From a virus (taxonomy: Duplodnaviria; Heunggongvirae; Uroviricota; Caudoviricetes): a DNA stretch of 64,000 nt. The position numbers were made by a program, and so were the translations under genes. The stretch is taken from the IMG/VR virus record IMGVR_UViG_2778260992_000001. One strand, written 5' to 3'. The notes under the pieces were generated by a model. That model did not search any database. It worked only from the letters and a program-made list of their open reading frames with translations, and was not told where the DNA came from. Positions 25,096 to 51,701 of this stretch are shown here, piece after piece (positions within the stretch are counted from its first letter, which is position 1; each line of letters opens with the position of its first letter).

Positions 25096-27411
25096 ATGAT
25101 AAGCATCGTAAAACGTAACGGCCAAACAGAGCCGTTATCCGAAGAAAAATACAACCGCGTCGTAATGTATGGCGTAGAAGGCATTCGTGGTGTAAGCGCA
25201 TCCGCTGTAGCAATGGGAGCTGCGGCCAGCATTTTTGATGGGATTACCACCAGCCAGTTGCATGAGGCTTTGGTTAAATCTGCCGCTGATTTGATCTCAC
25301 CAGATGCACCAAATTACTCACAGGTGGCTGCCCGCCTGAACATTTTTAAAATCCGCAAAGATGCCTTCGGTCGTTACGACTATCCGAACTTCTACCAACA
25401 CATTGTCAAGAACGTTAACAAGGGCGTTTATGACAAGGATTTGCTGACACATTATTCGTTTGAAGAGATCGAAGAACTCGGCAATTACATTAAGCCTAAA
25501 CGTGACGATCTTTTTGGCTATGCAGCTACGGTGCAATTGCAAAGCAAATACCTCGTTCAAAACCGTGTTACTGGTGAGATTCATGAGGGGCCGCAACATA
25601 TCTATATGCTGGTAGGCATGTGTCTGTTCCAGAATTGGGAAGACGACTGCGCTGGCAAAACACGTATGGAGATGGTCAAAGGTTTCTATGACGTTACAAG
25701 TACGTTCAAACTGTCTCTGCCCACACCAATCATGGCCGGCGTCCGTACTCCAACCCGTCAGTTCTCCAGTTGTGTGCTGATTGAGTCTGGCGATAGTCTG
25801 AAAGGGATTAGCGCAGCTTCAGCCGCAATTATCGACTACGTTTCACGTCGTGCTGGAATTGGTATTGGTTTTGGCCGTATCCGTGCGCTGGGCAGTGAGA
25901 TCCGCAATGGTGAAGCCACCCATACCGGAGTTATTCCATTCCTGAAGCATTTCCAGACGGCTGTTAAATCTTGCTCGCAAGGTGGTGTCCGTGGTGGCGC
26001 AGCAACAGCGTTTTACCCGATTTGGCATCTTGAAGTTGAAAGTCTGCTGGTGGTGAAAAATAACCGTGGTATCGATGAAAACCGCGTTCGCCATCTTGAT
26101 TACGGTGTCATGAGTAACCGTCTGATGTACCGTCGACTCGTCAGAAGCGAGAACATCACTCTGTTCAGCCCGCATGATGTGCCTGATATGTACGAAGCCT
26201 TCTTCACAGACCAGGAGCTGTTTGAAAAGCTGTACCATAAATACGAAGCCGATGATTCAATTCGCAAGAAGTCAGTACCTGCCATTGAGCTGTTCTCATC
26301 TCTGATGCAGGAACGAGCGTCCACGGGCCGAATTTATATTGCGAACGTCGATCATATTAATGAGCATGGCGCTTTCATTCCTGCTCTTGCACCTGTTCGC
26401 CAGTCAAACCTGTGTATGGAGATCACCCTACCCACCCGTCCACTGGCATTTACCGACGACCCGAACGGTGAGATCGCGCTATGCACTTTATCCGCTTTTA
26501 ACCTCGGAGCCATCCGTTCACTGGAGTCTCTTAAAGAGGTGGCGTTCTATGCCGTTGCTGCACTGGATTCGTTACTGGATTATCAAGACTATCCGATGGA
26601 GGCAGCCGAAGTGCCTGCCAAAGCTCGTCGTAGCTTGGGAATTGGTGTAACCAACTTTGCTTATTACCTGGCAAAGAATGGCGTTCGTTATTCTGATACC
26701 GCTGGCAATAAACTGGTGCATGAAACGTTCGAAGCTATCCAGTATTACCTTCTTGATGCCAGCTGCCGACTTGCTGAAGCAAAAGGTGAGTGTGACTGGT
26801 TTGAGCAGACCAAGTACGCAATTGGTCAGTTGCCGATCGACCATTACCGTTCTTCATTAGACGAAAGTGGCGAAACCAACTTTGAGTTAAAGATGCCGTG
26901 GGAAGAACTGCGTGAACGTATTGCAAAATACGGCCTTCGCAACTCCACACTGACGGCACAAATGCCATGCGAGACTTCCAGCCAGATCACTAATTCCACC
27001 AACGGCATCGAACCGCCTCGTGGCCCGGTGTCGGTGAAATCTTCTAAGGACGGCATCGTTAAGATGGTCGTGCCTGAGTTTGAAAAACTGAAGGAACAGT
27101 ATGAATACCTGTGGGATATGCCGGACAACCGCGGCTATCTGACAAAGGTGGCGATCATCCAGAAGTTCTTTGACCAGGCTATTTCAGCCAATACCAACTA
27201 TGACCCTTCTCGCTTTGAAGGCGATAAAGTCCCAATGATGACGCTACTGTCAGATTTGCTTCTCGCCTACAAGATGGGAGTTAAAACGCTTTACTACCAC
27301 AACACCAGAGATGGGGCAGGAAAGCGTGATGACGACGAACCGCAGAATCCACTGACGCAAGCTGTAGCCGTCGAGCCAGAAGATGAGTGCGACGGAGCCT
27401 GCAAAATCTGA
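25096..27411 (+). CDS. nrdA: ribonucleoside-diphosphate reductase alpha subunit (class Ia)
   Basis: 771 aa; N-terminal ATP-cone (ISIVKRNGQTEPLSEEKYNRV); catalytic-core motifs and C-terminal Cys tail. Confidence 0.9.
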   Translation: MISIVKRNGQTEPLSEEKYNRVVMYGVEGIRGVSASAVAMGAAASIFDGITTSQLHEALVKSAADLISPDAPNYSQVAARLNIFKIRKDAFGRYDYPNFYQHIVKNVNKGVYDKDLLTHYSFEEIEELGNYIKPKRDDLFGYAATVQLQSKYLVQNRVTGEIHEGPQHIYMLVGMCLFQNWEDDCAGKTRMEMVKGFYDVTSTFKLSLPTPIMAGVRTPTRQFSSCVLIESGDSLKGISAASAAIIDYVSRRAGIGIGFGRIRALGSEIRNGEATHTGVIPFLKHFQTAVKSCSQGGVRGGAATAFYPIWHLEVESLLVVKNNRGIDENRVRHLDYGVMSNRLMYRRLVRSENITLFSPHDVPDMYEAFFTDQELFEKLYHKYEADDSIRKKSVPAIELFSSLMQERASTGRIYIANVDHINEHGAFIPALAPVRQSNLCMEITLPTRPLAFTDDPNGEIALCTLSAFNLGAIRSLESLKEVAFYAVAALDSLLDYQDYPMEAAEVPAKARRSLGIGVTNFAYYLAKNGVRYSDTAGNKLVHETFEAIQYYLLDASCRLAEAKGECDWFEQTKYAIGQLPIDHYRSSLDESGETNFELKMPWEELRERIAKYGLRNSTLTAQMPCETSSQITNSTNGIEPPRGPVSVKSSKDGIVKMVVPEFEKLKEQYEYLWDMPDNRGYLTKVAIIQKFFDQAISANTNYDPSRFEGDKVPMMTLLSDLLLAYKMGVKTLYYHNTRDGAGKRDDDEPQNPLTQAVAVEPEDECDGACKI

Positions 27412-27416
27412 CATAT

Positions 27417-27448
27417 GGTGGGGGGTATCCCCACCTTCTCTTTGATTT
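27417..27448 (+). terminator. hairpin with T-rich tail after nrdA
   Basis: GGTGGGG-ggtat-CCCCACC followed by TTCTCTTTGATTT. Confidence 0.55.
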
Positions 27449-27470
27449 GTAAGCCTTGTTTAAACAAATA

Positions 27471-27488
27471 AGATAACAACTTGTTTAA
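27471..27488. promoter_or_regulatory. class-1 palindromic element ATAACAACTTGTTTAAAC
   Basis: Upstream of nrdB; preceded by a second copy TTGTTTAAACAA. Confidence 0.5.
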
Positions 27489-27516
27489 ACACATCAAAAA
27501 GCAAAAGGAAAAACAC

Positions 27517-28659
27517 ATGTCATATTCAACGTTCCGTTTGGGTGCTAATGATGCAACCAAAGAGCCTATGTTCCTCGGACAATCTGTCAACGTGGCACGT
27601 TACGATCAGCAAAAATACCGTGATTTTGAAAAGTTGATTGAACGTCAATTGTCTTTCTTCTGGCGGCCGGAAGAAGTTGATATTTCGAGCGATCGTATCG
27701 ACTTCAACACGAAGCTGCGGGACCACGAACGTCACATTTTTCTGAGCAATCTCCGTTATCAAACGTTACTCGATTCAGTTCAGGGACGTAGCCCAAATGC
27801 AACGCTGCTGCCGCTTATCTCTATTCCTGAACTGGAAACGTGGGTTGAAACATGGTCTTTCTCTGAGACTATCCATAGCCGCAGCTACACCCACATTATT
27901 CGTGGCATGGTGGACGATCCGAGCATTGTTTTTGACGGTATTGTTACGGATGAAGAAATCATCAACCGAGCGATCAGTATCTCTGCTGAATATGACAGGC
28001 TTTATGGGATGACCTGCGAGCGCCAGTCGTTAGGTGAGAAAGAGTTTGAACGTCTGTACGTAAATGAATATGGCTGGGAGCCATACCCTTTGCACCGTCA
28101 GCTTTTCCGCACGTTGGTGTCCATTAATGCGCTTGAGGCGATCCGTTTCTATGTAAGTTTTGCATGTACGTTTGCCTTTGGCGAACGGAAGTTGCTTGAG
28201 GGTAACACCAAAATTATGCGCTTTATTGCCCGTGATGAAGCTCTGCATTGCGAAGGAACTGAACGCATGATCCGCTTCATGCGTACCGGTCGCGAAGGTT
28301 TATTGTGGAAAGAGATTGCTGCTGATGAAGAAAACGTCATTTACGACACCATGAAATCAGTCGCCGAACAAGAAATGAACTGGGCAGACTATCTCTTCAA
28401 AGACGGTTCGATGATTGGTTTAAACGCGGATATTCTGAAGACCTATGTAAAATACCGAACCAATCTGGCTATGAATCGTCTTGGCCTGAAGGCTTTATTT
28501 CCAGAAGTTACCACAGATCCGCTGGTCTGGATGAACAAGTGGTTGTTAACCGACACACTGCAAATTGCACCACAAGAGGCAGAGCAAAGCACATATCTGG
28601 TAGGTCAGATCGATTCTACCGTGGACAAGGCTTCTCTAAGCCAGTTTGCAGACCTGTAA
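27517..28659 (+). CDS. nrdB: ribonucleoside-diphosphate reductase beta subunit
   Basis: Ferritin-like diiron/tyrosyl-radical fold; start set at ATG after AAGGA RBS (track ORF begins at a TTG codon, 27481). Confidence 0.9.
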
Positions 28660-28736
28660 ACCGATACAAAGCATTATGTGGCCTGGCAACGCTGGGCCAC
28701 AATGGATCACAAGAATTAAGAAGGAACAAAACTAGC

Positions 28737-29606
28737 ATGAACTTTACCAAACTGACTGACCACCTGAAACTTGCCACCGATCGTCTCATTGGATTTAAGC
28801 CAGAACCATATGAGTTGCATGAAGGTCATGGTGTAGCTACTGAAAGTATTTACAAGATGGTCGATCAGTTTCATGAACTCTTCCAGCATCCGAGACGCGT
28901 TATGCCGACACCAGAGCTGCTTCGTCTCCGTGCAAGCCTGATTCATGAAGAAGCTGTAGTGGAAGGTATTCCAGCTGCAATGAATGGGGATATTGAGCAA
29001 CTGCTGGATGCAATGGCCGACTTTTTATACGTTGGTGTTGGTACGATGGTCGCCATCAAAGGTGGTATTTCTACCGGCATGACCTATTACACGCAGGAAC
29101 AGAGCATTGATCGCTTTATGCAGACAATTTTTGTGCCTGGTAACACTGTTTTCGATGATATGGCAATGCCATTTCAGGAAGCTCGTGAGGCGTCATGTAT
29201 GCTCGAAGAGCTGGCAGATAAACTTGAGAACAAGACTGTTAAGGATTCTGAGCTGATTCAGGAACTGCGCCGTGTCATGAACAAAATCTATGTGGCGTGC
29301 ATGATGACCTATCGACTGGCTGATTTCCTCGGTATCAATGTCGTCGAGCTGGTTGGCGAAATTCATCGGTCCAACATGACAAAATTATGGCCTGCAGATG
29401 CCGAAGAGCGTCGCCATGCTGTGGCCAACTGCAAATACGACTCTTCTGACCTGGGATTTCGCCATGCTGATGGCACCGATAAGATGATCGGTTTTCGAAT
29501 TTCCGATGGAAAAATTCTGAAGTCTCCAACCTATAGTGATGTCGATTTATCCTCCTTTGTTGAGCAAGCTAAAGCCTCAGCAATGTACGGAATGATCAAA
29601 AAATAA
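28737..29606 (+). CDS. putative MazG-like nucleoside triphosphate pyrophosphohydrolase (tandem domains)
   Basis: Two repeats of the EExxE ... D ... ELxD pattern (LIHEEAVVEGIP ... DIEQLLDAMADFLYV; CMLEELADKLE); upstream track extension overlaps nrdB and is rejected. Confidence 0.45.
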   Translation: MNFTKLTDHLKLATDRLIGFKPEPYELHEGHGVATESIYKMVDQFHELFQHPRRVMPTPELLRLRASLIHEEAVVEGIPAAMNGDIEQLLDAMADFLYVGVGTMVAIKGGISTGMTYYTQEQSIDRFMQTIFVPGNTVFDDMAMPFQEAREASCMLEELADKLENKTVKDSELIQELRRVMNKIYVACMMTYRLADFLGINVVELVGEIHRSNMTKLWPADAEERRHAVANCKYDSSDLGFRHADGTDKMIGFRISDGKILKSPTYSDVDLSSFVEQAKASAMYGMIKK

Positions 29607-29674
29607 TTGTAGGTAGTTATCTATCTATGTATATTGTGTCGGCGCGTTAAATTTCTGAAACAACTATCCGTTTT

Positions 29675-29700
29675 TGGTGGCCTATGGCCACCATTTTTTT
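29675..29700 (+). terminator. rho-independent terminator
   Basis: TGGTGGCC-tat-GGCCACCA followed by TTTTTTT. Confidence 0.7.
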
Positions 29701-29746
29701 ATCTATCTGGTCTTGTTCTCTCAATAAATGTAAACTCACACGATGA

Positions 29747-29764
29747 ATAAGTAATTACTTATCT
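29747..29764. promoter_or_regulatory. class-2 palindrome AATAAGTAATTACTTATC
   Basis: Perfect ATAAGTAATTACTTAT palindrome about 15 bp upstream of the thyA start. Confidence 0.45.
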
Positions 29765-29777
29765 TTGTGAGGTTTTT

Positions 29778-30881
29778 GTGTCACTCCTTTTGAATCGTGA
29801 GCATACGAACGGTCAGGTAACAAACGCATCGTATGCAAAAGTTATTGAGACGGTGCTTAAAAGCGGCGTGCAGGCTGATGATCGCACAGGCACTGGTACT
29901 TTAAGCACCTGCTACGTTCCCTCTTACTACATGCTTACTGGTGGGACTGTGCCGCTTATTTCTGGAAAGGCGGTAAATCTTAAGCCACTACTTGTCGAAC
30001 TTGAGTGGTATCTGAAAGGCACGGGTAACATCCAATTTCTCAAGGATAACGGCGTGAAGATTTGGGACGCATGGGCCGATGAGAATGGTGATTTGGGGCC
30101 GGTTTACGGCAAGCAGTGGCGTCGCTGGGAAGATACCCGCATCGTGAGCCATAGTGAGTATCTGAGCAAGATCGATACGTTCCGTGAACGCGGGTACAAA
30201 GTCGAGGGATACCTGGGTATCAGTGAAGATCGCGTAGTGCTGTCCCGTGAAATCGATCAGCTACAGCGTATTGTCGATACACTGCGCACGAACCCTACCG
30301 ATCGTCGCATCATGCTTAACGCATGGAACGTAGGCGAGCTTGAGGATATGAAACTGCCACCTTGCCACTTTGTCTTCTCTTTGTGGAGTCGTGAGCTTGA
30401 TTTTGAAACCCGTTTAACGATGGCAACTGACATTGGTCTTCAACACAGTCGCCTCGGTTACGAGTCTATCTACACCAAGATGCTATACGATCTGGAGATG
30501 GTCGGCAGTGTTACTGAAACTGAACTGGATGAACTTGGAATCCCCAAACGCATCCTCAACTCCTGCCTCGTACAGCGTAGCGTAGACACTTTTGTTGGTA
30601 TGCCATTCAATATTGCTGGTTATGGCATTCTCACTCATTTTCTCGCGAAGATTACGGGTCACATGGCCGGTGCCTTTGTGCATTTTGGCTTTGACGTGCA
30701 TTTGTACAATAACCACATGGAAAGTGTGTGTGAGCTAATGAAACGACAGGCTCCAGAGCATTCAGATCCGGTCGTTATTTTCCCTCATGAATGGTCTGAG
30801 CTGGATGATTTCAAATGGGACGATATTCTGATTCTTGGCTATGACCCTCTACCGTGGATCAAGGTTCCAGTGGCGGTGTGA
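29778..30881 (+). CDS. thyA: thymidylate synthase-family protein with a roughly 50-aa insertion
   Basis: DRTGTGT, LPPCHF (catalytic Cys) and QRSVD ... GMPFNIAGYG motifs; longer than canonical ThyA; GTG start. Confidence 0.8.
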   Translation: MSLLLNREHTNGQVTNASYAKVIETVLKSGVQADDRTGTGTLSTCYVPSYYMLTGGTVPLISGKAVNLKPLLVELEWYLKGTGNIQFLKDNGVKIWDAWADENGDLGPVYGKQWRRWEDTRIVSHSEYLSKIDTFRERGYKVEGYLGISEDRVVLSREIDQLQRIVDTLRTNPTDRRIMLNAWNVGELEDMKLPPCHFVFSLWSRELDFETRLTMATDIGLQHSRLGYESIYTKMLYDLEMVGSVTETELDELGIPKRILNSCLVQRSVDTFVGMPFNIAGYGILTHFLAKITGHMAGAFVHFGFDVHLYNNHMESVCELMKRQAPEHSDPVVIFPHEWSELDDFKWDDILILGYDPLPWIKVPVAV

Positions 30882-30882
30882 T

Positions 30883-31296
30883 ATGGCAAGAGGTATGTAT
30901 GTCTTATGCGAAATTGAAGGTGTGCTGGCAAATACCAGCCATCGTAAATCTGTATCTGACGCGGATGCAGGCCAGCTCATTGCCGGTGATGAACTCATTT
31001 TCCCCACCAGCCGTATGTTGCGTGGTTTTGCTCGCTCAGGGGCTGAAGTGGTGCTTATCAGTAGCCGCTCTGAAACTCTTGAAGCGCCCACTAAACGATG
31101 GCTGAAAGATTTTGGTGTTGATTACGACTGGCTTCATCTCGTACCGAATGGCATCAGTTATGAGAAGCATATTAAGCGCACATTAGCGGAGCATAAAGGC
31201 GATCTGCTTATCGCTGCGCTGGTGCACGATCCTCGACTCCGTGCCGCTTTAGCTGACTCTCATCATAGACCGGTCATCTATGAGGTGGGCAAATGA
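30883..31296 (+). CDS. hypothetical protein (possibly HAD-like phosphatase / nucleotidase)
   Basis: Start ATG overlaps thyA stop; CEIEGVL resembles a degenerate HAD motif I; weak. Confidence 0.35.
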   Translation: MARGMYVLCEIEGVLANTSHRKSVSDADAGQLIAGDELIFPTSRMLRGFARSGAEVVLISSRSETLEAPTKRWLKDFGVDYDWLHLVPNGISYEKHIKRTLAEHKGDLLIAALVHDPRLRAALADSHHRPVIYEVGK

Positions 31297-31769
31297 AGAT
31301 GATAGCTGCTGTTGGCCGTAATTATGAGATCGGTAGAGCGAACGAACTGCCCTGGCGTTGCTCTACCGATCTGAAGCTATTTAAGAGACTCACCAAAAAC
31401 GCCACTGTCGTTATGGGACGTAAAACGATGGAAAGTCTCAAACGCCCTCTTCCAGAGCGTCATAATCTCGTTTTGACGCGCTCTCATGGCTTTGTACCAA
31501 ATGGATTCTACCCTGCTGGTGTGGATGATGTGTTGCGATTACCAGAGCCTGTGTGGGTGATTGGCGGGGAACAAATTTACTCGCTATTCATGCCGCATGT
31601 TGAAGAGATTTGGCTCTCCCACATCGGCGTTGATGTACCAAACGCTGATGCATTCTTCCCGGCAAGCATGATGCGTAACTTAGGCTTTGTGCCTGTTGAA
31701 ACAGCTTATACCCAACGAGCCAGCGAGGAAGAGCCTGGCTTTTCGCAGATCGTATACAGAAGGTCGTAA
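31293..31769 (+). CDS. folA: dihydrofolate reductase
   Basis: MIAAVGRN ... LPW ... VMGRKT pattern of DHFR; 158 aa. Confidence 0.85.
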   Translation: MKMIAAVGRNYEIGRANELPWRCSTDLKLFKRLTKNATVVMGRKTMESLKRPLPERHNLVLTRSHGFVPNGFYPAGVDDVLRLPEPVWVIGGEQIYSLFMPHVEEIWLSHIGVDVPNADAFFPASMMRNLGFVPVETAYTQRASEEEPGFSQIVYRRS

Positions 31770-34613: not shown

Positions 34614-35207
34614 ATGATTGCAGCCGAAAAAATCAAACAGCGAAAGCGCGACAACTCTCTTCGTGACCTCTGGAGAACACCTGATTGGCTGTTTTCTGCC
34701 ATTCAACGTTATCTTGGGGTGACATTTGATGTTGACGTTGCCTGCAACAAGGACAATGCAAAGCTGCCTAATTTCATAGGCGTTGAGCGTGATGCTTTGA
34801 AATCTGAATGGGGACAGCCAGGTACAATTGCCTTCCTCAATCCACCCTACTCCAAAATCTCCCCCTGGATTGATGCTGCTATACGTGAGCAGGCTCGCGG
34901 AGTTACAACAGTGATGCTAATTCCTCAATCCCTCGATACAAAGTGGTATGAGCGTGCAACAGAGTATGCGAATGAGACGATTATTCTGTCTGGTGGCCGC
35001 GTAGCGTTTGTCGAGCCTGACGTCAATTTGGGTCAGGTAGAAGTAAACATCAACCCCGGTGGCAGTATGCTCGTTGTTTTTCGAGGATTCTGTCAGGACG
35101 CTGGGCACTCTATAAGCAAGATCCCTTTGGACGTAATGAAAAGTCTGGGAGGGTATGATCCTGCGAATGTGGTCAGGAAAAAAAGACCATCAAAGAAGGC
35201 TGCTTAG
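34614..35207 (+). CDS. dam: phage-type DNA N6-adenine methyltransferase (Dam family)
   Basis: WRTPDWLF and NPPY motifs; start at ATG (track ORF begins at a TTG codon, 34602). Confidence 0.8.
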   Translation: MIAAEKIKQRKRDNSLRDLWRTPDWLFSAIQRYLGVTFDVDVACNKDNAKLPNFIGVERDALKSEWGQPGTIAFLNPPYSKISPWIDAAIREQARGVTTVMLIPQSLDTKWYERATEYANETIILSGGRVAFVEPDVNLGQVEVNINPGGSMLVVFRGFCQDAGHSISKIPLDVMKSLGGYDPANVVRKKRPSKKAA

Positions 35208-35623: not shown

Positions 35624-36204
35624 TAGATAAGTACAAACTATTCATAAGATGGATTGTAAGTGCTAAGATCTGATAGTTTCCAGTCGTAGACTGGAGACTC
35701 GACCTGATGGGTGGGGGTAAGCGTCACTGGCGTCAGGTTTAAAAAAGCTCACTACCAGCGTAGAACCGGTGCCGTTTAGGTGTCGGGGAAGGGGGAACCA
35801 AAGTGAGCGGAGACAAGGGTCACTTTATGATTGTCGAGTCTGGGATGTTTCGAGAGGTTGAATCCAGTACTCCCCTTCATAAAGTGTGGGAAGATCTCGG
35901 TTCTGGGGTGCTGTCATCCATAACTTCCCAAGTCTAAGCTGGCAGTAGACTTAGACCATAGCTTTTCAGGTTATGAAACGACCAGGTTGGTGAGGAATTT
36001 TATACTCACCTCCCTGGGAGAGTATTACCTGAAAAGACAACCTCTCACTTCGTTCGAGGTGAACTTCACTCACTTCGTTCGTTCAGTTCAGGTTTATAAA
36101 AACCTGTACTGGGAAGTAATTTGTTTATTTTAATAATTATTACACGCACGCGTGTGCGCACGCGCGAGGAAAAAATCGGCGCGGCGCTTGATTCAGGAGT
36201 TTAT

Positions 36205-36795
36205 ATGACGTCGAAGACACCAGCCCGGTCGCAAGCAAAAACTCGCAAAAAAGACAAAAACAAAAATTCTCCCCGCACCAATCCCACAACGCCTGTCGTA
36301 GAGTTCAATCCCCAGCTTAAAACCGTGAAAATCTTCAGTGATGGCTCTTGCCTTAAAAATCCGGGTGGCCCGGGCGGTTACGGTATAGTTCTCCAGTATC
36401 GTGGTGAGGAACGCGAGTTCTCAGATGGTTTTCATAGCACCACCAATAACCGCATGGAGATGATGGGGGCACTTATCGGGCTGGAGCGTTTGAAATATCC
36501 ATGCAACGTTATTTTGCACTCTGATAGCCAGTATCTGAAAAACGGCATGACACAGTGGATGAAATGGTGGAAACGCAATGGATGGATGACTTCTGACAAA
36601 AAACCGGTAAAGAATGTTGATCTGTGGAAGCGTCTGGATGAGGCCGCAAGTCGACATAATGTTCGCTGGAAGTGGGTTAAAGGTCACGCCGGGCATCGTG
36701 AAAATGAAATATGTGATCGACTCGCGAAGATCGCAGCTTTTTCCGCAGCAGATATGCCTCACAAGAAAGATATTGGTTTTGTTTATAACAAGTAG
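36205..36795 (+). CDS. rnhA: ribonuclease HI
   Basis: [20 protein letters not shown] ... HSDSQYL ... WVKGHAGH ... NEICDRLA motifs; start at ATG after CAGGAG RBS (track ORF starts upstream in a GC-rich palindrome). Confidence 0.85.
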
Positions 36796-39976: not shown

Positions 39977-40079
39977 CAAATACCTTTATTTAAAGGATTG
40001 CCTGTTAATTTCTATTTAGCACCTTTTCATTTTTGAAATAATTGCACCATTAAACAAATCTTTTCTTAATGGTGCAATT

Positions 40080-41765
40080 ATGAATACAGCCCTTTCCATC
40101 ATCGACGATGCCAACTCAAACACTGCTATCGATTATCGTCAGGAAATGAACGTCATCCACGAAATTGTGGCCGAGTGCGAGAAGGAGATCGCCTTCATGT
40201 ATCAGGTTCACGACTTCGTTTATGGAGACGAACGCCACAACATGATTAATCGCCTGCTGCAACTGAACCACCGACCAGATGAAGAACGCTCACGTTTGAA
40301 TCGAGCTTGGCTGGATAAAGTCGATCTGGAATGGGTGAAACAGAATATTTGGGCCGAGTACTGGAGGAAGGTCACGGATATGACTAACGTTCTGCTGATC
40401 ATGCCAGCTTCCCGTCGCGACGAGTGGCGTGAGCAGTTTATCGAGGGTAAGCAGGAAGTCATCAAAACTGACAGAACCGGCTATCAGATGAAGGTAAAAG
40501 AGTTCGTTGGTGTACCGGAGTTCAAAGCAGAAACGGTCATACCCACGATGCTTAATTTGCTGAATGACAGGCACAAATATCTCTCTGAGCGCGTGTATGG
40601 CTTGTTTAAGGCGCTGAGTCCTGCGCACAAGACAAATAAGACAAACGGTTTCAGCGAACGTCTGATAATCGCTGACTGCATTTCTGATTTCTGGCGGGAC
40701 AGCGTTAGCGTGAACTATCGCAAAGAGGACTACATCGACGATCTGCGTGTCTTGCTTCATTTCTTCGCGCACAAAGAATTTATTACCATCAACCGCACTG
40801 CTGAGGTGCTATCAGCTGCGTATAGGGCAAACGACTGCCAGACCGGTGACTGGATGAACGTCGATGGAAATCTGATGCGCGTGAAGATGTTCAAGAACGG
40901 CAACGTTCACTTTGAAATACATCCTGACGTGGCCTGGAAGTTGAATGAGGTGCTGGCTTACAGTATGCCTGCTGCAATCCCCGCGCCATGCCGAACTGCG
41001 CCAAAAACACGGGCACCAAAGCAGTTCGGTTTAATCCAGAAGACGATCTCCGTGCCGGTTCGCACTGCGCTTCGTGACGGGCGATTGAGCAAAGACAAAG
41101 GCGTATGGTACTTCTCTGATTCAGCTCTCCAGAAGTCGCAGGTGGAAGAGCTTGAGCGCACACTGAGCTTCATTGGCGGCGTGCAGGAGAAAAAGCACTG
41201 GCAGTTCCCGTATGAGATCGGCCATACGCTAAATACGATTGTGGCTACCGGATTAATACCGGATACAAAATCACACCAGTTCTACCCTACCCCACGCTTG
41301 ATTGCTGAGTACGTTGCCAGAGCCACTGAATTGAAGCCTGGTGAGAAGCTGCTGGAGCCTCAAGCCGGACGTGGGGATCTTCTGGCCTATATTAACGCCG
41401 ATCTGGAAGATGTTACCTGCATAGAAATCGCACCTCTCTTCGCTGATATCCTGCGTGGAAAAGGGTATACGAACACGATTTGCTGCGACTTCATAAAGTG
41501 GTCTGAGGACAACGCAGGTTATCAGTTCGACAAAATCGTTATGAACCCGCCGTACTCGCTTGGTCGTCATAGAGAGCACACGATGGCTGCGCTGGGGCAT
41601 CTGAAAGTCGGCGGGCGTCTTGTAGCAGTATTGCCGGGCACTGCGCCAATACTGGACTGGATGACGATGGATAATTACGTTTATGCCAGAGGGAAGTCGT
41701 TTACCAACGAGTTTGAAGATACCGGGATCACAGTCAGCGTATACGTTTTCAAACGCGTTAAATGA
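40080..41765 (+). CDS. N6-adenine/N4-cytosine-type DNA methyltransferase with about 400-aa N-terminal domain of unknown function
   Basis: C-terminal motifs FYPTPRLIAEYV, LEPQAGRGDL (AdoMet) and NPPY (catalytic); large uncharacterised N-terminus. Confidence 0.6.
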   Translation: MNTALSIIDDANSNTAIDYRQEMNVIHEIVAECEKEIAFMYQVHDFVYGDERHNMINRLLQLNHRPDEERSRLNRAWLDKVDLEWVKQNIWAEYWRKVTDMTNVLLIMPASRRDEWREQFIEGKQEVIKTDRTGYQMKVKEFVGVPEFKAETVIPTMLNLLNDRHKYLSERVYGLFKALSPAHKTNKTNGFSERLIIADCISDFWRDSVSVNYRKEDYIDDLRVLLHFFAHKEFITINRTAEVLSAAYRANDCQTGDWMNVDGNLMRVKMFKNGNVHFEIHPDVAWKLNEVLAYSMPAAIPAPCRTAPKTRAPKQFGLIQKTISVPVRTALRDGRLSKDKGVWYFSDSALQKSQVEELERTLSFIGGVQEKKHWQFPYEIGHTLNTIVATGLIPDTKSHQFYPTPRLIAEYVARATELKPGEKLLEPQAGRGDLLAYINADLEDVTCIEIAPLFADILRGKGYTNTICCDFIKWSEDNAGYQFDKIVMNPPYSLGRHREHTMAALGHLKVGGRLVAVLPGTAPILDWMTMDNYVYARGKSFTNEFEDTGITVSVYVFKRVK

Positions 41766-51323: not shown

Positions 51324-51338
51324 AAAACAATTTGTTTT
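51324..51338. promoter_or_regulatory. class-1 palindromic element AAAACAATTTGTTTT (first of a tandem pair)
   Basis: First element-type motif after the metG stop; second copy GAAAACAACTTGTTTT at about 51374-51389. Confidence 0.5.
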
Positions 51339-51401
51339 CTGCCTTTTGTTGATTGAGATAATAAACCACATAAGAAAACAACTTGTTTTGGAGTGGTTTA
51401 A

Positions 51402-51701
51402 ATGTTGAACATTACCCAAGCCTACCAGGTGGCATTGATCAGCTCATCTCATACATCAGAGGAAGATGCTCGCCGATTCATGATCGCAAGCAATGAGCTG
51501 GATTGGGTTTCACAAATTGAGTACGGTTGCATTGTCCACGCCGGGTTACAGGATGATGTCTGGAAAGACAACTTGCGTCGATATGGTATATCCGAGGGCG
51601 CGATTTCGAACATTCAGAAGGTACTTGATGTAGGCTTCGACTCTGTACATTTCGATTGTGGCGCACCGGTCGTTGAAGGGCTTGAGTGCTGGCAATGGTA
51701 A
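51402..51701 (+). CDS. hypothetical protein
   Basis: 99-aa ORF with class-1 elements upstream. Confidence 0.5.
   Translation: MLNITQAYQVALISSSHTSEEDARRFMIASNELDWVSQIEYGCIVHAGLQDDVWKDNLRRYGISEGAISNIQKVLDVGFDSVHFDCGAPVVEGLECWQW

Follow-up and report, generated by a model that had tools for sequence, protein, structure and literature searches.

Orphan methylases are a main route by which phages and plasmids escape restriction. SSU5-type phage-plasmids are often met in clinical Enterobacteriaceae, and resistance genes are among their cargo. The locus considered here, a gene of one such element, encodes an adenine methylase core that lacks a target-recognition domain and is joined to a highly conserved module, DUF4942. 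This combination raises two questions: which specificity does the enzyme have, and what does DUF4942 do? The enzyme type itself is ordinary and only the architecture is new; it is the N-terminal module, rather than the kind of enzyme, that holds the main question of the gene.

The gene and its methyltransferase core

The window, by which we mean the whole stretch of 64,000 nucleotides that was analysed, comes from E. coli plasmid pG749_2 (NZ_CP014490.1), an SSU5/pHCM2-like phage-plasmid. Within it two genes need to be distinguished.

40080..41765, + strand: complete open reading frame (ATG start, TGA stop) for the DUF4942-methyltransferase fusion, 561 aa
34602/34614..35207, + strand: Dam-type phage N6-adenine methyltransferase, given as context (Pfam PF05869 Dam, E 2.3e-38; annotated 'phage N-6-adenine-methyltransferase')

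The fusion gene sits within the replication and nucleotide-metabolism block of the element, and beside it in the window lie small hypothetical genes and genes of Ea22/Eaa-like and HD-domain type. RefSeq labels its product 'DUF4942 domain-containing protein' (WP_061158064.1), while PHROG 6263, 'DNA methyltransferase', spans the whole protein (E 8e-300). It is a strongly conserved core gene of SSU5-like elements and evolves under purifying selection, with dN/dS of 0.05-0.09 against orthologs (0.085 for the whole gene against the SSU5 ortholog and 0.048 against that of Klebsiella pC708_2). A library of 1.84 billion proteins holds more than 7000 homologs (7497 matches). Given such numbers and the low dN/dS, 40080-41765 is a real gene and not a chance reading frame.

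The first-pass annotation had proposed that this frame encodes a second adenine-type methyltransferase, separate from a Dam-type enzyme, with AdoMet-binding and NPPY motifs near its C-terminus. This is what we find: the Dam-type gene lies where it is listed above, and both motifs are present and match M.TaqI residue for residue. The parts of the catalytic half are the following, with residue conservation scored over 145 distant cluster representatives.

41052..41264, + strand: small alpha/beta sub-domain, aa ~325-395, which travels with the methyltransferase core (AF2 elements from helix 325-332 to helix 381-390)
41265..41762, + strand: class-I SAM-dependent N6-adenine methyltransferase core, aa 396-561, motif order I to IV, no C-terminal target-recognition domain
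41277..41294, + strand: motif X, QFYPTP, aa 400-405, paired with ETPPEV of M.TaqI (Q400, Y402, P403 and T404 at least 90% conserved)
41349..41378, + strand: motif I, LLEPQAGRGD, aa 424-433, AdoMet binding by motif, paired with VLEPACAHG of M.TaqI (E426 and G430 invariant)
41418..41492, + strand: motifs II (CIEIA, E449) and III (CCDF, D470/F471), paired with VEID and ADF of M.TaqI (E449, D470 and F471 at least 90% conserved)
41544..41555, + strand: motif IV, NPPY, aa 489-492, the amino-methyltransferase catalytic tetrapeptide, paired with NPPY of M.TaqI (invariant at N489 and P491, with Y or F at 492)

The order of these motifs (X, I, II, III, IV) is that of M.TaqI, to which they align one-to-one, and of other gamma-class enzymes such as M.BseCI and CamA. 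Class gamma is described by the succession motif I, motif IV, target-recognition domain (PMC7544214). Its first features are found here, namely a class-I seven-stranded SAM methyltransferase fold in aa 396-561 and, in the alignment with M.TaqI, an AdoMet motif I that precedes motif IV. The third is not: gamma-class enzymes carry a C-terminal target-recognition domain of about 180 aa or more, whereas here the chain stops where the fold ends. In the AF2 model the last strand of the catalytic fold finishes at residue 559 of 561, no C-terminal target-recognition domain is seen, and the extra domains are N-terminal only. As only two residues separate the end of this fold from the stop codon, the protein has no such domain at this end. 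Also unlike the gamma-class enzymes, it has an unrelated region of 395 aa before the core. Judged by its motifs and alignment, then, aa 396-561 is a minimal M.TaqI-like catalytic core; PHROG 9133, a 1259-aa profile, covers it together with the preceding sub-domain (aa 328-560) as a single block.

Could such a core act on something other than DNA? The family profile matches not only M.TaqI, its best PDB sequence match (E 8e-7), but also Dim1/KsgA (E 2.5e-5), and there are weak NCBIfam and Pfam matches to KsgA/Erm. Taken with the missing canonical DNA target-recognition domain, this might suggest an enzyme that places m6A on RNA (rRNA or tRNA), or one that methylates protein (at glutamine), and so acts on the host translation machinery during infection. 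We consider this improbable. The rRNA methylase models score far below their curated cut-offs (RrnaAD 12.3 bits against 24, ksgA 15.8 against 171, Erm 11-16 against 212-675), and the C-terminal RNA-binding domain of KsgA/Erm is absent, no residues being left after the catalytic fold. The closest relative at the sequence level is a DNA enzyme, and among the enzymes compared the highest identities are with TaqI and CamA. PADLOC matches type II DNA methylase models and the MADS defence methylase model mad2, in each case within the methylase region only. In addition, homologs are found grouped with DNA methylase genes in phage early regions, and with psiA/psiB.

The DUF4942 module

The part of the protein preceding the sub-domain can be divided as follows.

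40080..40331, + strand: variable N-terminal helical segment, aa 1-84 (disordered up to residue 17, AF2 helices at 20-48 and 50-62)
40332..41009, + strand: DUF4942 module, aa ~85-310 (Pfam PF13708 match at aa 140-295, nt 40497-40964)
40614..40637, + strand: motif L179-S180-x-x-H183-x-T185-N186 in a flexible loop of the module, invariant in the 145 representatives (pLDDT below 50 at 182-186)
40908..40946, + strand: conserved segment H277-x-E279-x-H281-P-D...N289 of the module, a beta-strand followed by a helix (H277 and N289 invariant, E279 at least 90% conserved)

It had been stated earlier that about 400 N-terminal residues bear no recognisable signature. That statement has to be withdrawn: a domain search of the N-terminus gave Pfam DUF4942 (73.9 bits against a cut-off of 25, E 2e-20), PHROG 6263 matches over the full length, and the DUF4942 match is present in 16 of 16 aligned homologs. 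The region is uncharacterised, yet recognisable. Besides DUF4942 no further Pfam family was found in it. For aa 1-395, a PDB sequence profile search returned nothing below E 0.1 and BFVD returned two uncharacterised proteins only; the module has no likeness to any solved structure. In the literature, the entries looked at for DUF4942 list the gene as annotation only, with no experiment on the fused family; searches on PF13708 found nothing, and those on the SSU5 methyltransferase found nothing about the fusion gene.

Conservation is more informative. While aa 1-84 are the least conserved part of the protein (mean column identity 0.26 in the 145 representatives), the DUF4942 module shows the strongest constraint anywhere in the gene, with dN/dS of 0.02-0.04, which is 2.5-4 times below that of the methylase. 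In the same representatives nine N-terminal positions are invariant (W95, L179, S180, H183, T185, N186, H277, N289 and L292) against five in the methylase core. A classical target-recognition domain is variable; because DUF4942 is, family-wide, as conserved as the catalytic core or more so, it is unlikely to be one. Its conservation would mean either that the whole family has one fixed, possibly relaxed, specificity, or that the module has a role other than reading sequence.

Invariant histidine, asparagine, serine and threonine residues, combined with the lowest dN/dS of the gene, resemble an active or ligand site more than a surface that reads DNA. A candidate site would comprise S180, H183, T185, N186, H277 and N289 together with D221, R223, D262, E279 and R305. 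That DUF4942 is in fact a new conserved functional module with a site of its own, and no passive DNA-reading domain, we put forward as a tentative suggestion. If correct, the gene would represent an undescribed amino-methyltransferase architecture in which a recognition or clamp module lies N-terminal to a core of I to IV order without a target-recognition domain. Alternatively, it would represent bifunctional enzymes of counter-defence that couple methylation to a further activity, which could be the recognition of single-stranded or replicating DNA or the neutralising of a host factor. A module of this kind would also account for DUF4942 genes that stand alone in genomic islands.

Such stand-alone genes are on record. 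In CP4-type islands, L0010-like proteins have KlcA/ArdB-like, RadC and toxin-antitoxin genes as neighbours (PMC6980539). They belong to the same Pfam family and to horizontally acquired islands, with no fused methylase, a likeness known from annotation. DUF4942 apparently occurs also as phage proteins of about 250-300 aa (phrog_38825; BFVD matches). A second protein search with the N-domain profile returned the same fused family only and no stand-alone DUF4942 proteins. From the island forms, and apparently those of phages, it follows that DUF4942 can work without a fused methylase.

This leads to the suggestion that the protein is bifunctional, or 'polyvalent': DUF4942 would be an effector in its own right, either enzymatic or acting by binding a host protein of defence or replication, and the fused methyltransferase would add a second, distinct activity against defence. 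The excess of invariant N-terminal positions, the low dN/dS of the module and its occurrence without a methylase all speak for it; however, the module matches no known catalytic fold or family, and the methylase core would be left without any other candidate DNA-binding domain. On balance we regard it as rather unlikely.

A further proposal is that DUF4942 is a nuclease and the whole a single-chain restriction-modification or defence enzyme of type IIG/IIL kind. The homolog in Aeromonas phage ST4 is indeed annotated 'RE endonuclease'. Yet the N-module showed no nuclease fold or family, whether PD-(D/E)xK, HNH or another, K268 is not conserved, and the recognition domain that such enzymes need after the methylase is absent. 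Positions in phage early operons and beside psiA/psiB, and the confinement of the PADLOC match to the methylase region, fit counter-defence instead, and we give this proposal hardly any weight.

Family, genomic setting and known relatives

The protein matches no fewer than 366 clusters (50% identity) at E<1e-30, and thousands of sequences fall in the 90% clusters closely related to it. The best 150 of the 7497 matches are nearly all full length, at 500-590 aa. The H277...N289 motif was used to retrieve 80 loci; at 76 of 79 genome loci NPP[YFW] lies downstream of the DUF4942 motif in the same reading frame. The fusion is thus fixed and defines a large family. That its order and length are nearly constant throughout is more typical of one machine than of shuffled modules, a further point against two independent activities in one chain.

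Members are found in proteobacterial prophages, phage-plasmids and conjugative plasmids: on SSU5-type phage-plasmids, on IncHI2 plasmids near a Dam gene, and in the early operons of lambdoid prophages adjoining N6_N4 or C5 methylases. We took a census of the largest flanking ORFs of the 79 loci (148 ORFs), using the top 25 families in each of two libraries. It counted integrase 6 times, C5 methylase 5, N6_N4 methylase 4, PsiA 3 and PsiB 2; no nuclease family was among the top 25 listed in either library, that is, no recurrent restriction-nuclease partner. By its neighbours in the window and by this census of 79 loci, the DUF4942-methyltransferase is an orphan methylase with no adjoining cognate nuclease.

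One small relative, a methylase of 187 aa, is encoded in the IncF leading region (WP_001298559.1, 'class I SAM-dependent methyltransferase'). Its core is homologous (30% identity over aa 400-517, E 1e-13), it too has no recognition domain, and it is likewise carried by a mobile element amid establishment and anti-defence genes, between a DUF3560 protein and ssb; unlike the protein studied here it has no DUF4942 module. 'Class I SAM-dependent methyltransferase' matches of this type are present on many other enterobacterial plasmids; the literature consulted held no experimental study of the 187-aa protein. The neighbouring DUF3560 protein was considered as a split-off DUF4942 and rejected (hhalign probability 0.4%), as was YfjB of F as a homolog of the small methylase, YfjB being a ParB-like protein.

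M.EcoGIX and M.BceJIII are orphan plasmid adenine methylases, single-strand-specific with relaxed SAY specificity and a strand asymmetry tied to the mode of replication, that protect against restriction around entry or replication; they are beta-class enzymes with DPPY, and the M.EcoGIX gene has 684 nt, for about 227 aa (PMC7736820, PMC4288162). The DUF4942-methyltransferase does not belong with them, having the I to IV order and NPPY where they are beta-class and DPPY; theirs is a separate gene of the IncF leading region and lacks DUF4942. As functional analogues, by comparison of setting and role, they are plausible.

The same core family is also met in giant phage and plasmid proteins, with profiles of roughly 770-3900 aa (phrogs 15406, 11358, 10691 and 5143; Serratia phage Parlo, Pseudomonas F116/H66). 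These are annotated 'DarB-like antirestriction' or virion structural, and in them the core is joined to many other domains, in contrast to the compact two-part enzyme described here. At E<1e-3 there was no match to P1 DarB itself. That the core serves as a module of such multi-domain proteins is a point in favour of DUF4942 and methylase acting separately.

Expression and proposed role

Two sequence elements lie directly upstream of the gene.

40022..40042, + strand: promoter-like box CCTTTTC-N5-TGAAATAAT, of extended -10 type, directly 5' of the gene, shared by the upstream regions of orthologs from Salmonella to Morganella
40040..40079, + strand: perfect 14-bp inverted repeat AATTGCACCATTAA-N12-TTAATGGTGCAATT, abutting the ATG (RNA fold -20.6 kcal/mol, z -6.3)

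The box has a second copy at 51342-51362, so that there are 2 matches where 0.01 would be expected, and CCTTTTC-N5-TGAAATAAT is a putative promoter. The ortholog in phage-plasmid Cyrano, 98% identical, is transcriptionally silent in lysogens (PMC9928086): CYRAN_90 has 7.85 normalised reads in LB against a floor of 4.99, while 95.75 are recorded for the repressor CYRAN_45 (S1 Table of the same paper). A literature search for an SSU5 operator or repressor found nothing.

What, then, might the gene be for? The most probable answer, in our opinion, is an orphan m6A DNA methylase, made in the lytic or entry phases, that shields the DNA of the element from host restriction, with DUF4942 providing substrate engagement. 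The substrate would be DNA. The DUF4942 module and the sub-domain of aa 325-395 would hold the nucleic acid against the catalytic pocket, so that a single fixed, possibly relaxed, specificity would be common to the family. Silent while the element is a plasmid-prophage, the gene would be switched on by its own promoter in the lytic cycle or once a new cell has been entered. The m6A marks then placed on new DNA of the element would block host restriction enzymes.

An anti-restriction or modification role had been proposed from the start, and it fits the context. The gene is on a mobile element, no nuclease partner recurred in the listed families of the census, homologs lie beside orphan methylases in prophage early regions or beside psiA/psiB, and related catalytic domains occur in 'DarB-like antirestriction' proteins and in the IncF leading-region methylase. 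Orphan methylases of plasmids and phages do protect against restriction (PMC4288162, PMC7736820, PMC11541004). Should the specificity be relaxed, the enzyme might serve as a footprinting tool, as M.EcoGII does. Should it be just another protective methylase, the result would be an ordinary one, with novelty in the architecture only. Against this reading stand the Dam-type enzyme that the element already encodes, the site-like invariant residues of DUF4942 and its occurrence without a methylase, and the only moderate confidence of the model in how the two halves are oriented to each other (pTM 0.61).

The DNA methylation might instead control the element itself (replication, packaging, or the choice between lysis and lysogeny), like that of Dam or CcrM. 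The conservation of the gene as a core gene of SSU5-like elements, its location inside the replication and nucleotide-metabolism block and its own conserved promoter-like box would suit such a role, and a conserved recognition module would suit a single fixed regulatory motif. Yet the family is carried by unrelated elements that differ in replication and packaging (lambdoid prophages, IncHI2 plasmids, psiA/psiB-adjoining elements), it often adjoins other orphan methylases, and the gene is silent in the maintained plasmid state. Epigenetic control therefore seems to us a poor candidate beside restriction protection.

As for the inverted repeat, it may be a translational hairpin or an operator. 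As RNA it would pair the Shine-Dalgarno-like GGUG and the AU of the AUG. In Cyrano the arms are identical and the loop is different; in the upstream alignment the repeat is not perfect in SSU5, Kluyvera and Klebsiella. A reading of the recurrent AAACAAnTTGTTT palindrome as RNA structure was rejected, 8 of 9 cassettes folding no better than shuffles (z -2.1 to +1.2). Among the nine AAACAAnTTGTTT cassettes the only strong hairpin is that of the methylase leader in the pG749_2 lineage.

The element and the gene

The window matches the E. coli G749 plasmid pG749_2 (NZ_CP014490.1, 109.9 kb) at 100% identity. Records akin to it include the phage-plasmid Cyrano, Salmonella phage SSU5 and many plasmids of 105-115 kb from Escherichia, Salmonella, Klebsiella, Citrobacter and Enterobacter, which are predicted to be non-mobilizable. 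Because of this identity and these relatives, we assign the element on sequence grounds to the SSU5/pHCM2-type phage-plasmids. The reading frame of 561 aa proposed in the first-pass annotation was recovered exactly in the ORF list, and the separate Dam-type enzyme mentioned there is also present. Both genes lie within a long block of co-directional genes.

Genes of the block
34614-35207, Dam-type methylase (Pfam Dam, E 2.3e-38)
40080-41765, + strand, the gene studied (WP_061158064.1)
Same block, nrdAB, thyX, a DHFR, exonuclease and RNase H
Same block, TerB-like, Ea22/Eaa-like and HD-domain genes

The nrdAB, thyX and DHFR region spans 25096-31769. The ORF at 36121-36795 gives a strong Pfam match to RNase H (E 1.2e-44) and is missing from the source plasmid's gene table, a PLSDB table known to have gaps; its Cyrano ortholog is annotated 'Ribonuclease H / Reverse Transcriptase 3'. 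The segment 47949-51240 encodes an iron-sulfur carrier like that of the host (apbC, - strand) and a methionyl-tRNA synthetase of full length (metG).

A methylase core lacking a recognition domain

For the C-terminal domain, single-sequence searches gave N6_Mtase, RrnaAD, MTS and KsgA/Erm matches that were all sub-threshold, and the protein missed every rRNA-methylase cut-off. A phmmer comparison with M.TaqI aligned motif X (FYPTP with ETPPEV), motif I (LLEPQAGRG with VLEPACAHG), motifs II (IEI with VEI) and III (CDF with ADF) and motif IV (FDKIVMNPPY with FDLILGNPPY). A profile of 145 representatives of the family, pairwise at most 50% identical, matched M.TaqI at E 8e-7, better than Dim1/KsgA. 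Throughout this set E426, G430, N489, P491 and H500 are invariant, and conservation reaches at least 90% at E449, D470, F471, P490 and F545. Because of the motif alignment, the profile match and the invariant residues, the domain looks like an NPPY-type amino-methyltransferase, predicted to be active, with the I to IV motif order of class gamma. That class is defined as having a C-terminal target-recognition domain (TRD) as a third element (PMC7544214). In the structural model the final beta-strand of the Rossmann fold stops at residue 559 of 561, which leaves the protein without such a domain; for this reason it fits the definition of class gamma only in part. The M.TaqI-like adenine methylase core is thus complete and conserved, and has no recognition domain of its own.

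The same core is found elsewhere. It matches mad2, the MADS methylase model (E 2.6e-15), and it has relatives in giant proteins of phages, whose annotation reads 'DarB-like antirestriction' or virion structural. A 187-aa 'class I SAM-dependent methyltransferase' of many enterobacterial plasmids, likewise TRD-less, has a homologous core (30% identity). On the E. coli IncF plasmid pUM146 (locus L003, 5914-6477) its gene belongs to the leading region, flanked by ssb and the gene of a 453-aa DUF3560 protein, and is distinct from the M.EcoGIX-type methylase of that region; no description of it was found in the literature that we consulted. Membership of the gene studied in the M.EcoGIX family is ruled out, as that family is of the beta class with DPPY, whereas our protein has NPPY in the I to IV order.

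The DUF4942 module and the role of the protein

The N-terminal region had been described as having no recognisable signature. This was wrong: a domain search places Pfam DUF4942 at aa 140-295 (E 1.8e-20), making the protein a member of that family, and PHROG 6263 ('DNA methyltransferase') covers its full length. The region is a known but uncharacterised Pfam domain. Modelled alone it reached a pLDDT of 81, and the model suggests the following division.

Predicted parts of the N-terminal region
aa 1-84, variable helical head
aa ~85-310, mixed alpha/beta module
aa ~325-395, small alpha/beta sub-domain

The sub-domain accompanies the methylase core elsewhere (phrog_9133 aligns with aa 328-560). 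For the N-terminal region, a PDB profile search gave no match below E 0.1, BFVD yielded no convincing relative (just two viral proteins, both uncharacterised, 247 and 271 aa long), and a Pfam scan of 16 homologs found no family there besides DUF4942.

The DUF4942 module is the best-conserved part of the protein. Positions at least 90% conserved number 40 of 226 in the module versus 24 of 166 in the methylase, and dN/dS is 0.040 versus 0.107 against SSU5 and 0.017 versus 0.071 against Klebsiella pC708_2. W95, L179, S180, H183, T185, N186, H277, N289 and L292 are invariant among the 145 representatives, with D221, R223, D262, E279 and R305 at least 90% conserved. These invariant polar residues and very low dN/dS values, together with stand-alone DUF4942 genes in CP4-type islands and phages, would suit a bifunctional protein in which DUF4942 is an independent effector, a possibility that we consider unlikely. 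What DUF4942 does is potentially an interesting question.

An exhaustive phmmer search over 1.84 billion cluster representatives gave 7497 matches at E<1e-3, many covering the methylase core only, and 366 at E<1e-30; the best 150 of the 7497 are nearly all 500-590 aa long and aligned end to end. Scanning one genome per GTDB species for the HPDVAW motif found 80 loci, nearly all in Gamma-, Beta- and Alphaproteobacteria. An ORF was present at 79 of these loci, and in 76 of them it also carries NPP[YFW] ~205-230 residues downstream; the DUF4942-methylase fusion is therefore fixed. The core is invariably fused to DUF4942 and under strong purifying selection. Klebsiella plasmids H56, H60 and H80 match over the first 43-53 aa only (67-74% identity), and PHROGs 16000 and 25525 are N-terminal fragments of the protein, which suggests that the gene is often truncated or frameshifted in some lineages.

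The gene resides in SSU5-type phage-plasmids of eleven enterobacterial and related genera; in IncHI2 conjugative plasmids, close to repHI2 and two genes away from a Dam gene; in early-right operons of lambdoid prophages of Variovorax and an Enterobacterales genome, adjoining N6_N4 and C5 methylases; and in Pseudomonas phage phiPSA1, adjoining a second methylase. A census of the largest ORF on either side of 79 loci counted integrase (6), C5 methylase (5), N6_N4 methylase (4), YqaJ (4), DnaT (4), PsiA (3) and PsiB (2). Among these neighbours PADLOC recognised only methylase models, and no restriction nuclease recurred in the top 25 families of the flanking ORFs. The neighbourhoods are those of mobile elements, early genes and anti-defence. 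The first-pass suggestion of an anti-restriction or modification methylase is in part upheld by the M.TaqI-like core and by these anti-defence neighbourhoods lacking a recurrent nuclease; its featureless N-terminal domain is not. In the prophages and phiPSA1 the gene stands beside one or two further orphan methylases of N6_N4 or C5 type (L005 11749-12936; L007 6948-8207 and 12221-14320; L008 1132-2373), suggesting small 'methylase islands' in phage early regions.

We think it fairly probable that the protein is a DNA methylase whose N-terminal module engages the substrate and whose mark protects element DNA from restriction. The N-terminal module and the aa 325-395 sub-domain would hold DNA at the catalytic pocket, and the methyl mark would shield fresh copies of the element, or copies that have just entered, from host restriction, as other orphan methylases encoded by plasmids and phages have been found to do (PMC4288162, PMC7736820, PMC11541004). 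Such protective methylases are the closest in way of working. Conservation of the putative recognition module throughout the family leads us to expect a single shared specificity, which may be short or relaxed, rather than many. That the substrate is RNA or protein would agree with structural matches to METTL5, KsgA and Erm, but the sequence relation to M.TaqI and the DNA-methylase neighbourhoods make this improbable. Epigenetic regulation of the element instead of protection is also quite doubtful, and a single-chain restriction-modification enzyme is highly improbable, as neither a nuclease signature nor a C-terminal recognition domain was found.

In the library searched, DUF4942 is mentioned in just four papers; those consulted list it in gene tables, and no experiment on the protein was found. 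Databases already list it as a DNA methyltransferase or DUF4942 protein; an enzyme of a well-known type, it is new in its architecture.

Expression, leader and a recurrent palindrome

Expression of CYRAN_90, the 98%-identical Cyrano ortholog, was measured in E. coli LF82 lysogens (PMC9928086 S1 Table). It gave 7.85 normalised reads in LB, where the floor is 4.99, the putative repressor CYRAN_45 gave 95.75 and CYRAN_43 7084; its log2 value rose from ~3 in LB to ~5.8 inside macrophages at 6 h. Because the LB reads are so close to the floor, the methylase gene is practically silent while the element is kept as a plasmid-prophage, which suits a role in lytic growth or on entry.

Upstream of the ATG there is a promoter-like box, CCTTTTC-N5-TGAAATAAT (40022-40042), kept upstream of orthologs out to Morganella, where the protein is ~45% identical. 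A second copy lies at 51342-51362 (2 matches versus 0.01 expected). The leader carries the palindrome AAACAAnTTGTTT in SSU5, Kluyvera and Klebsiella and a diverged form of it in Morganella. In the window, and in Cyrano, its right half is lost; there is instead a perfect 14-bp inverted repeat (40040-40079) abutting the ATG, and some four changes from the SSU5 sequence create this repeat. Its RNA fold has an energy of -20.6 kcal/mol (z -6.3) with GGUG and the AU of AUG paired, so that the ribosome-binding GGUG would be predicted to be masked together with the start codon. In Cyrano the arms are identical and the loop is different. The repeat may be a translational hairpin or an operator.

With at most one mismatch, AAACAAnTTGTTT occurs at 14 sites in the window versus 0.43 expected, and at most of these a start codon on the + strand follows within ~30 nt.

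Sites of the 13-nt palindrome AAACAAnTTGTTT in the window, + strand
2570, 16036, 27474, 37693, 38422, 42963, 51325
51376, 52989, 54170, 54654, 55557, 56307, 56792

GATAAT-N3-ACACCAaCAAGA, a -10-like box with a conserved leader, often precedes it. Since RNA folds of these cassettes are no better than those of shuffles, AAACAAnTTGTTT appears to act at the DNA level, as an operator or promoter module probably common to a set of early or accessory genes of SSU5-like phage-plasmids; our literature search found no description of it. The cassette of methylase promoter and leader, in its SSU5 form, is nearly duplicated at 51330-51405, with the palindrome present twice (51325 and 51376), just after metG and upstream of a 99-aa ORF starting at 51402.
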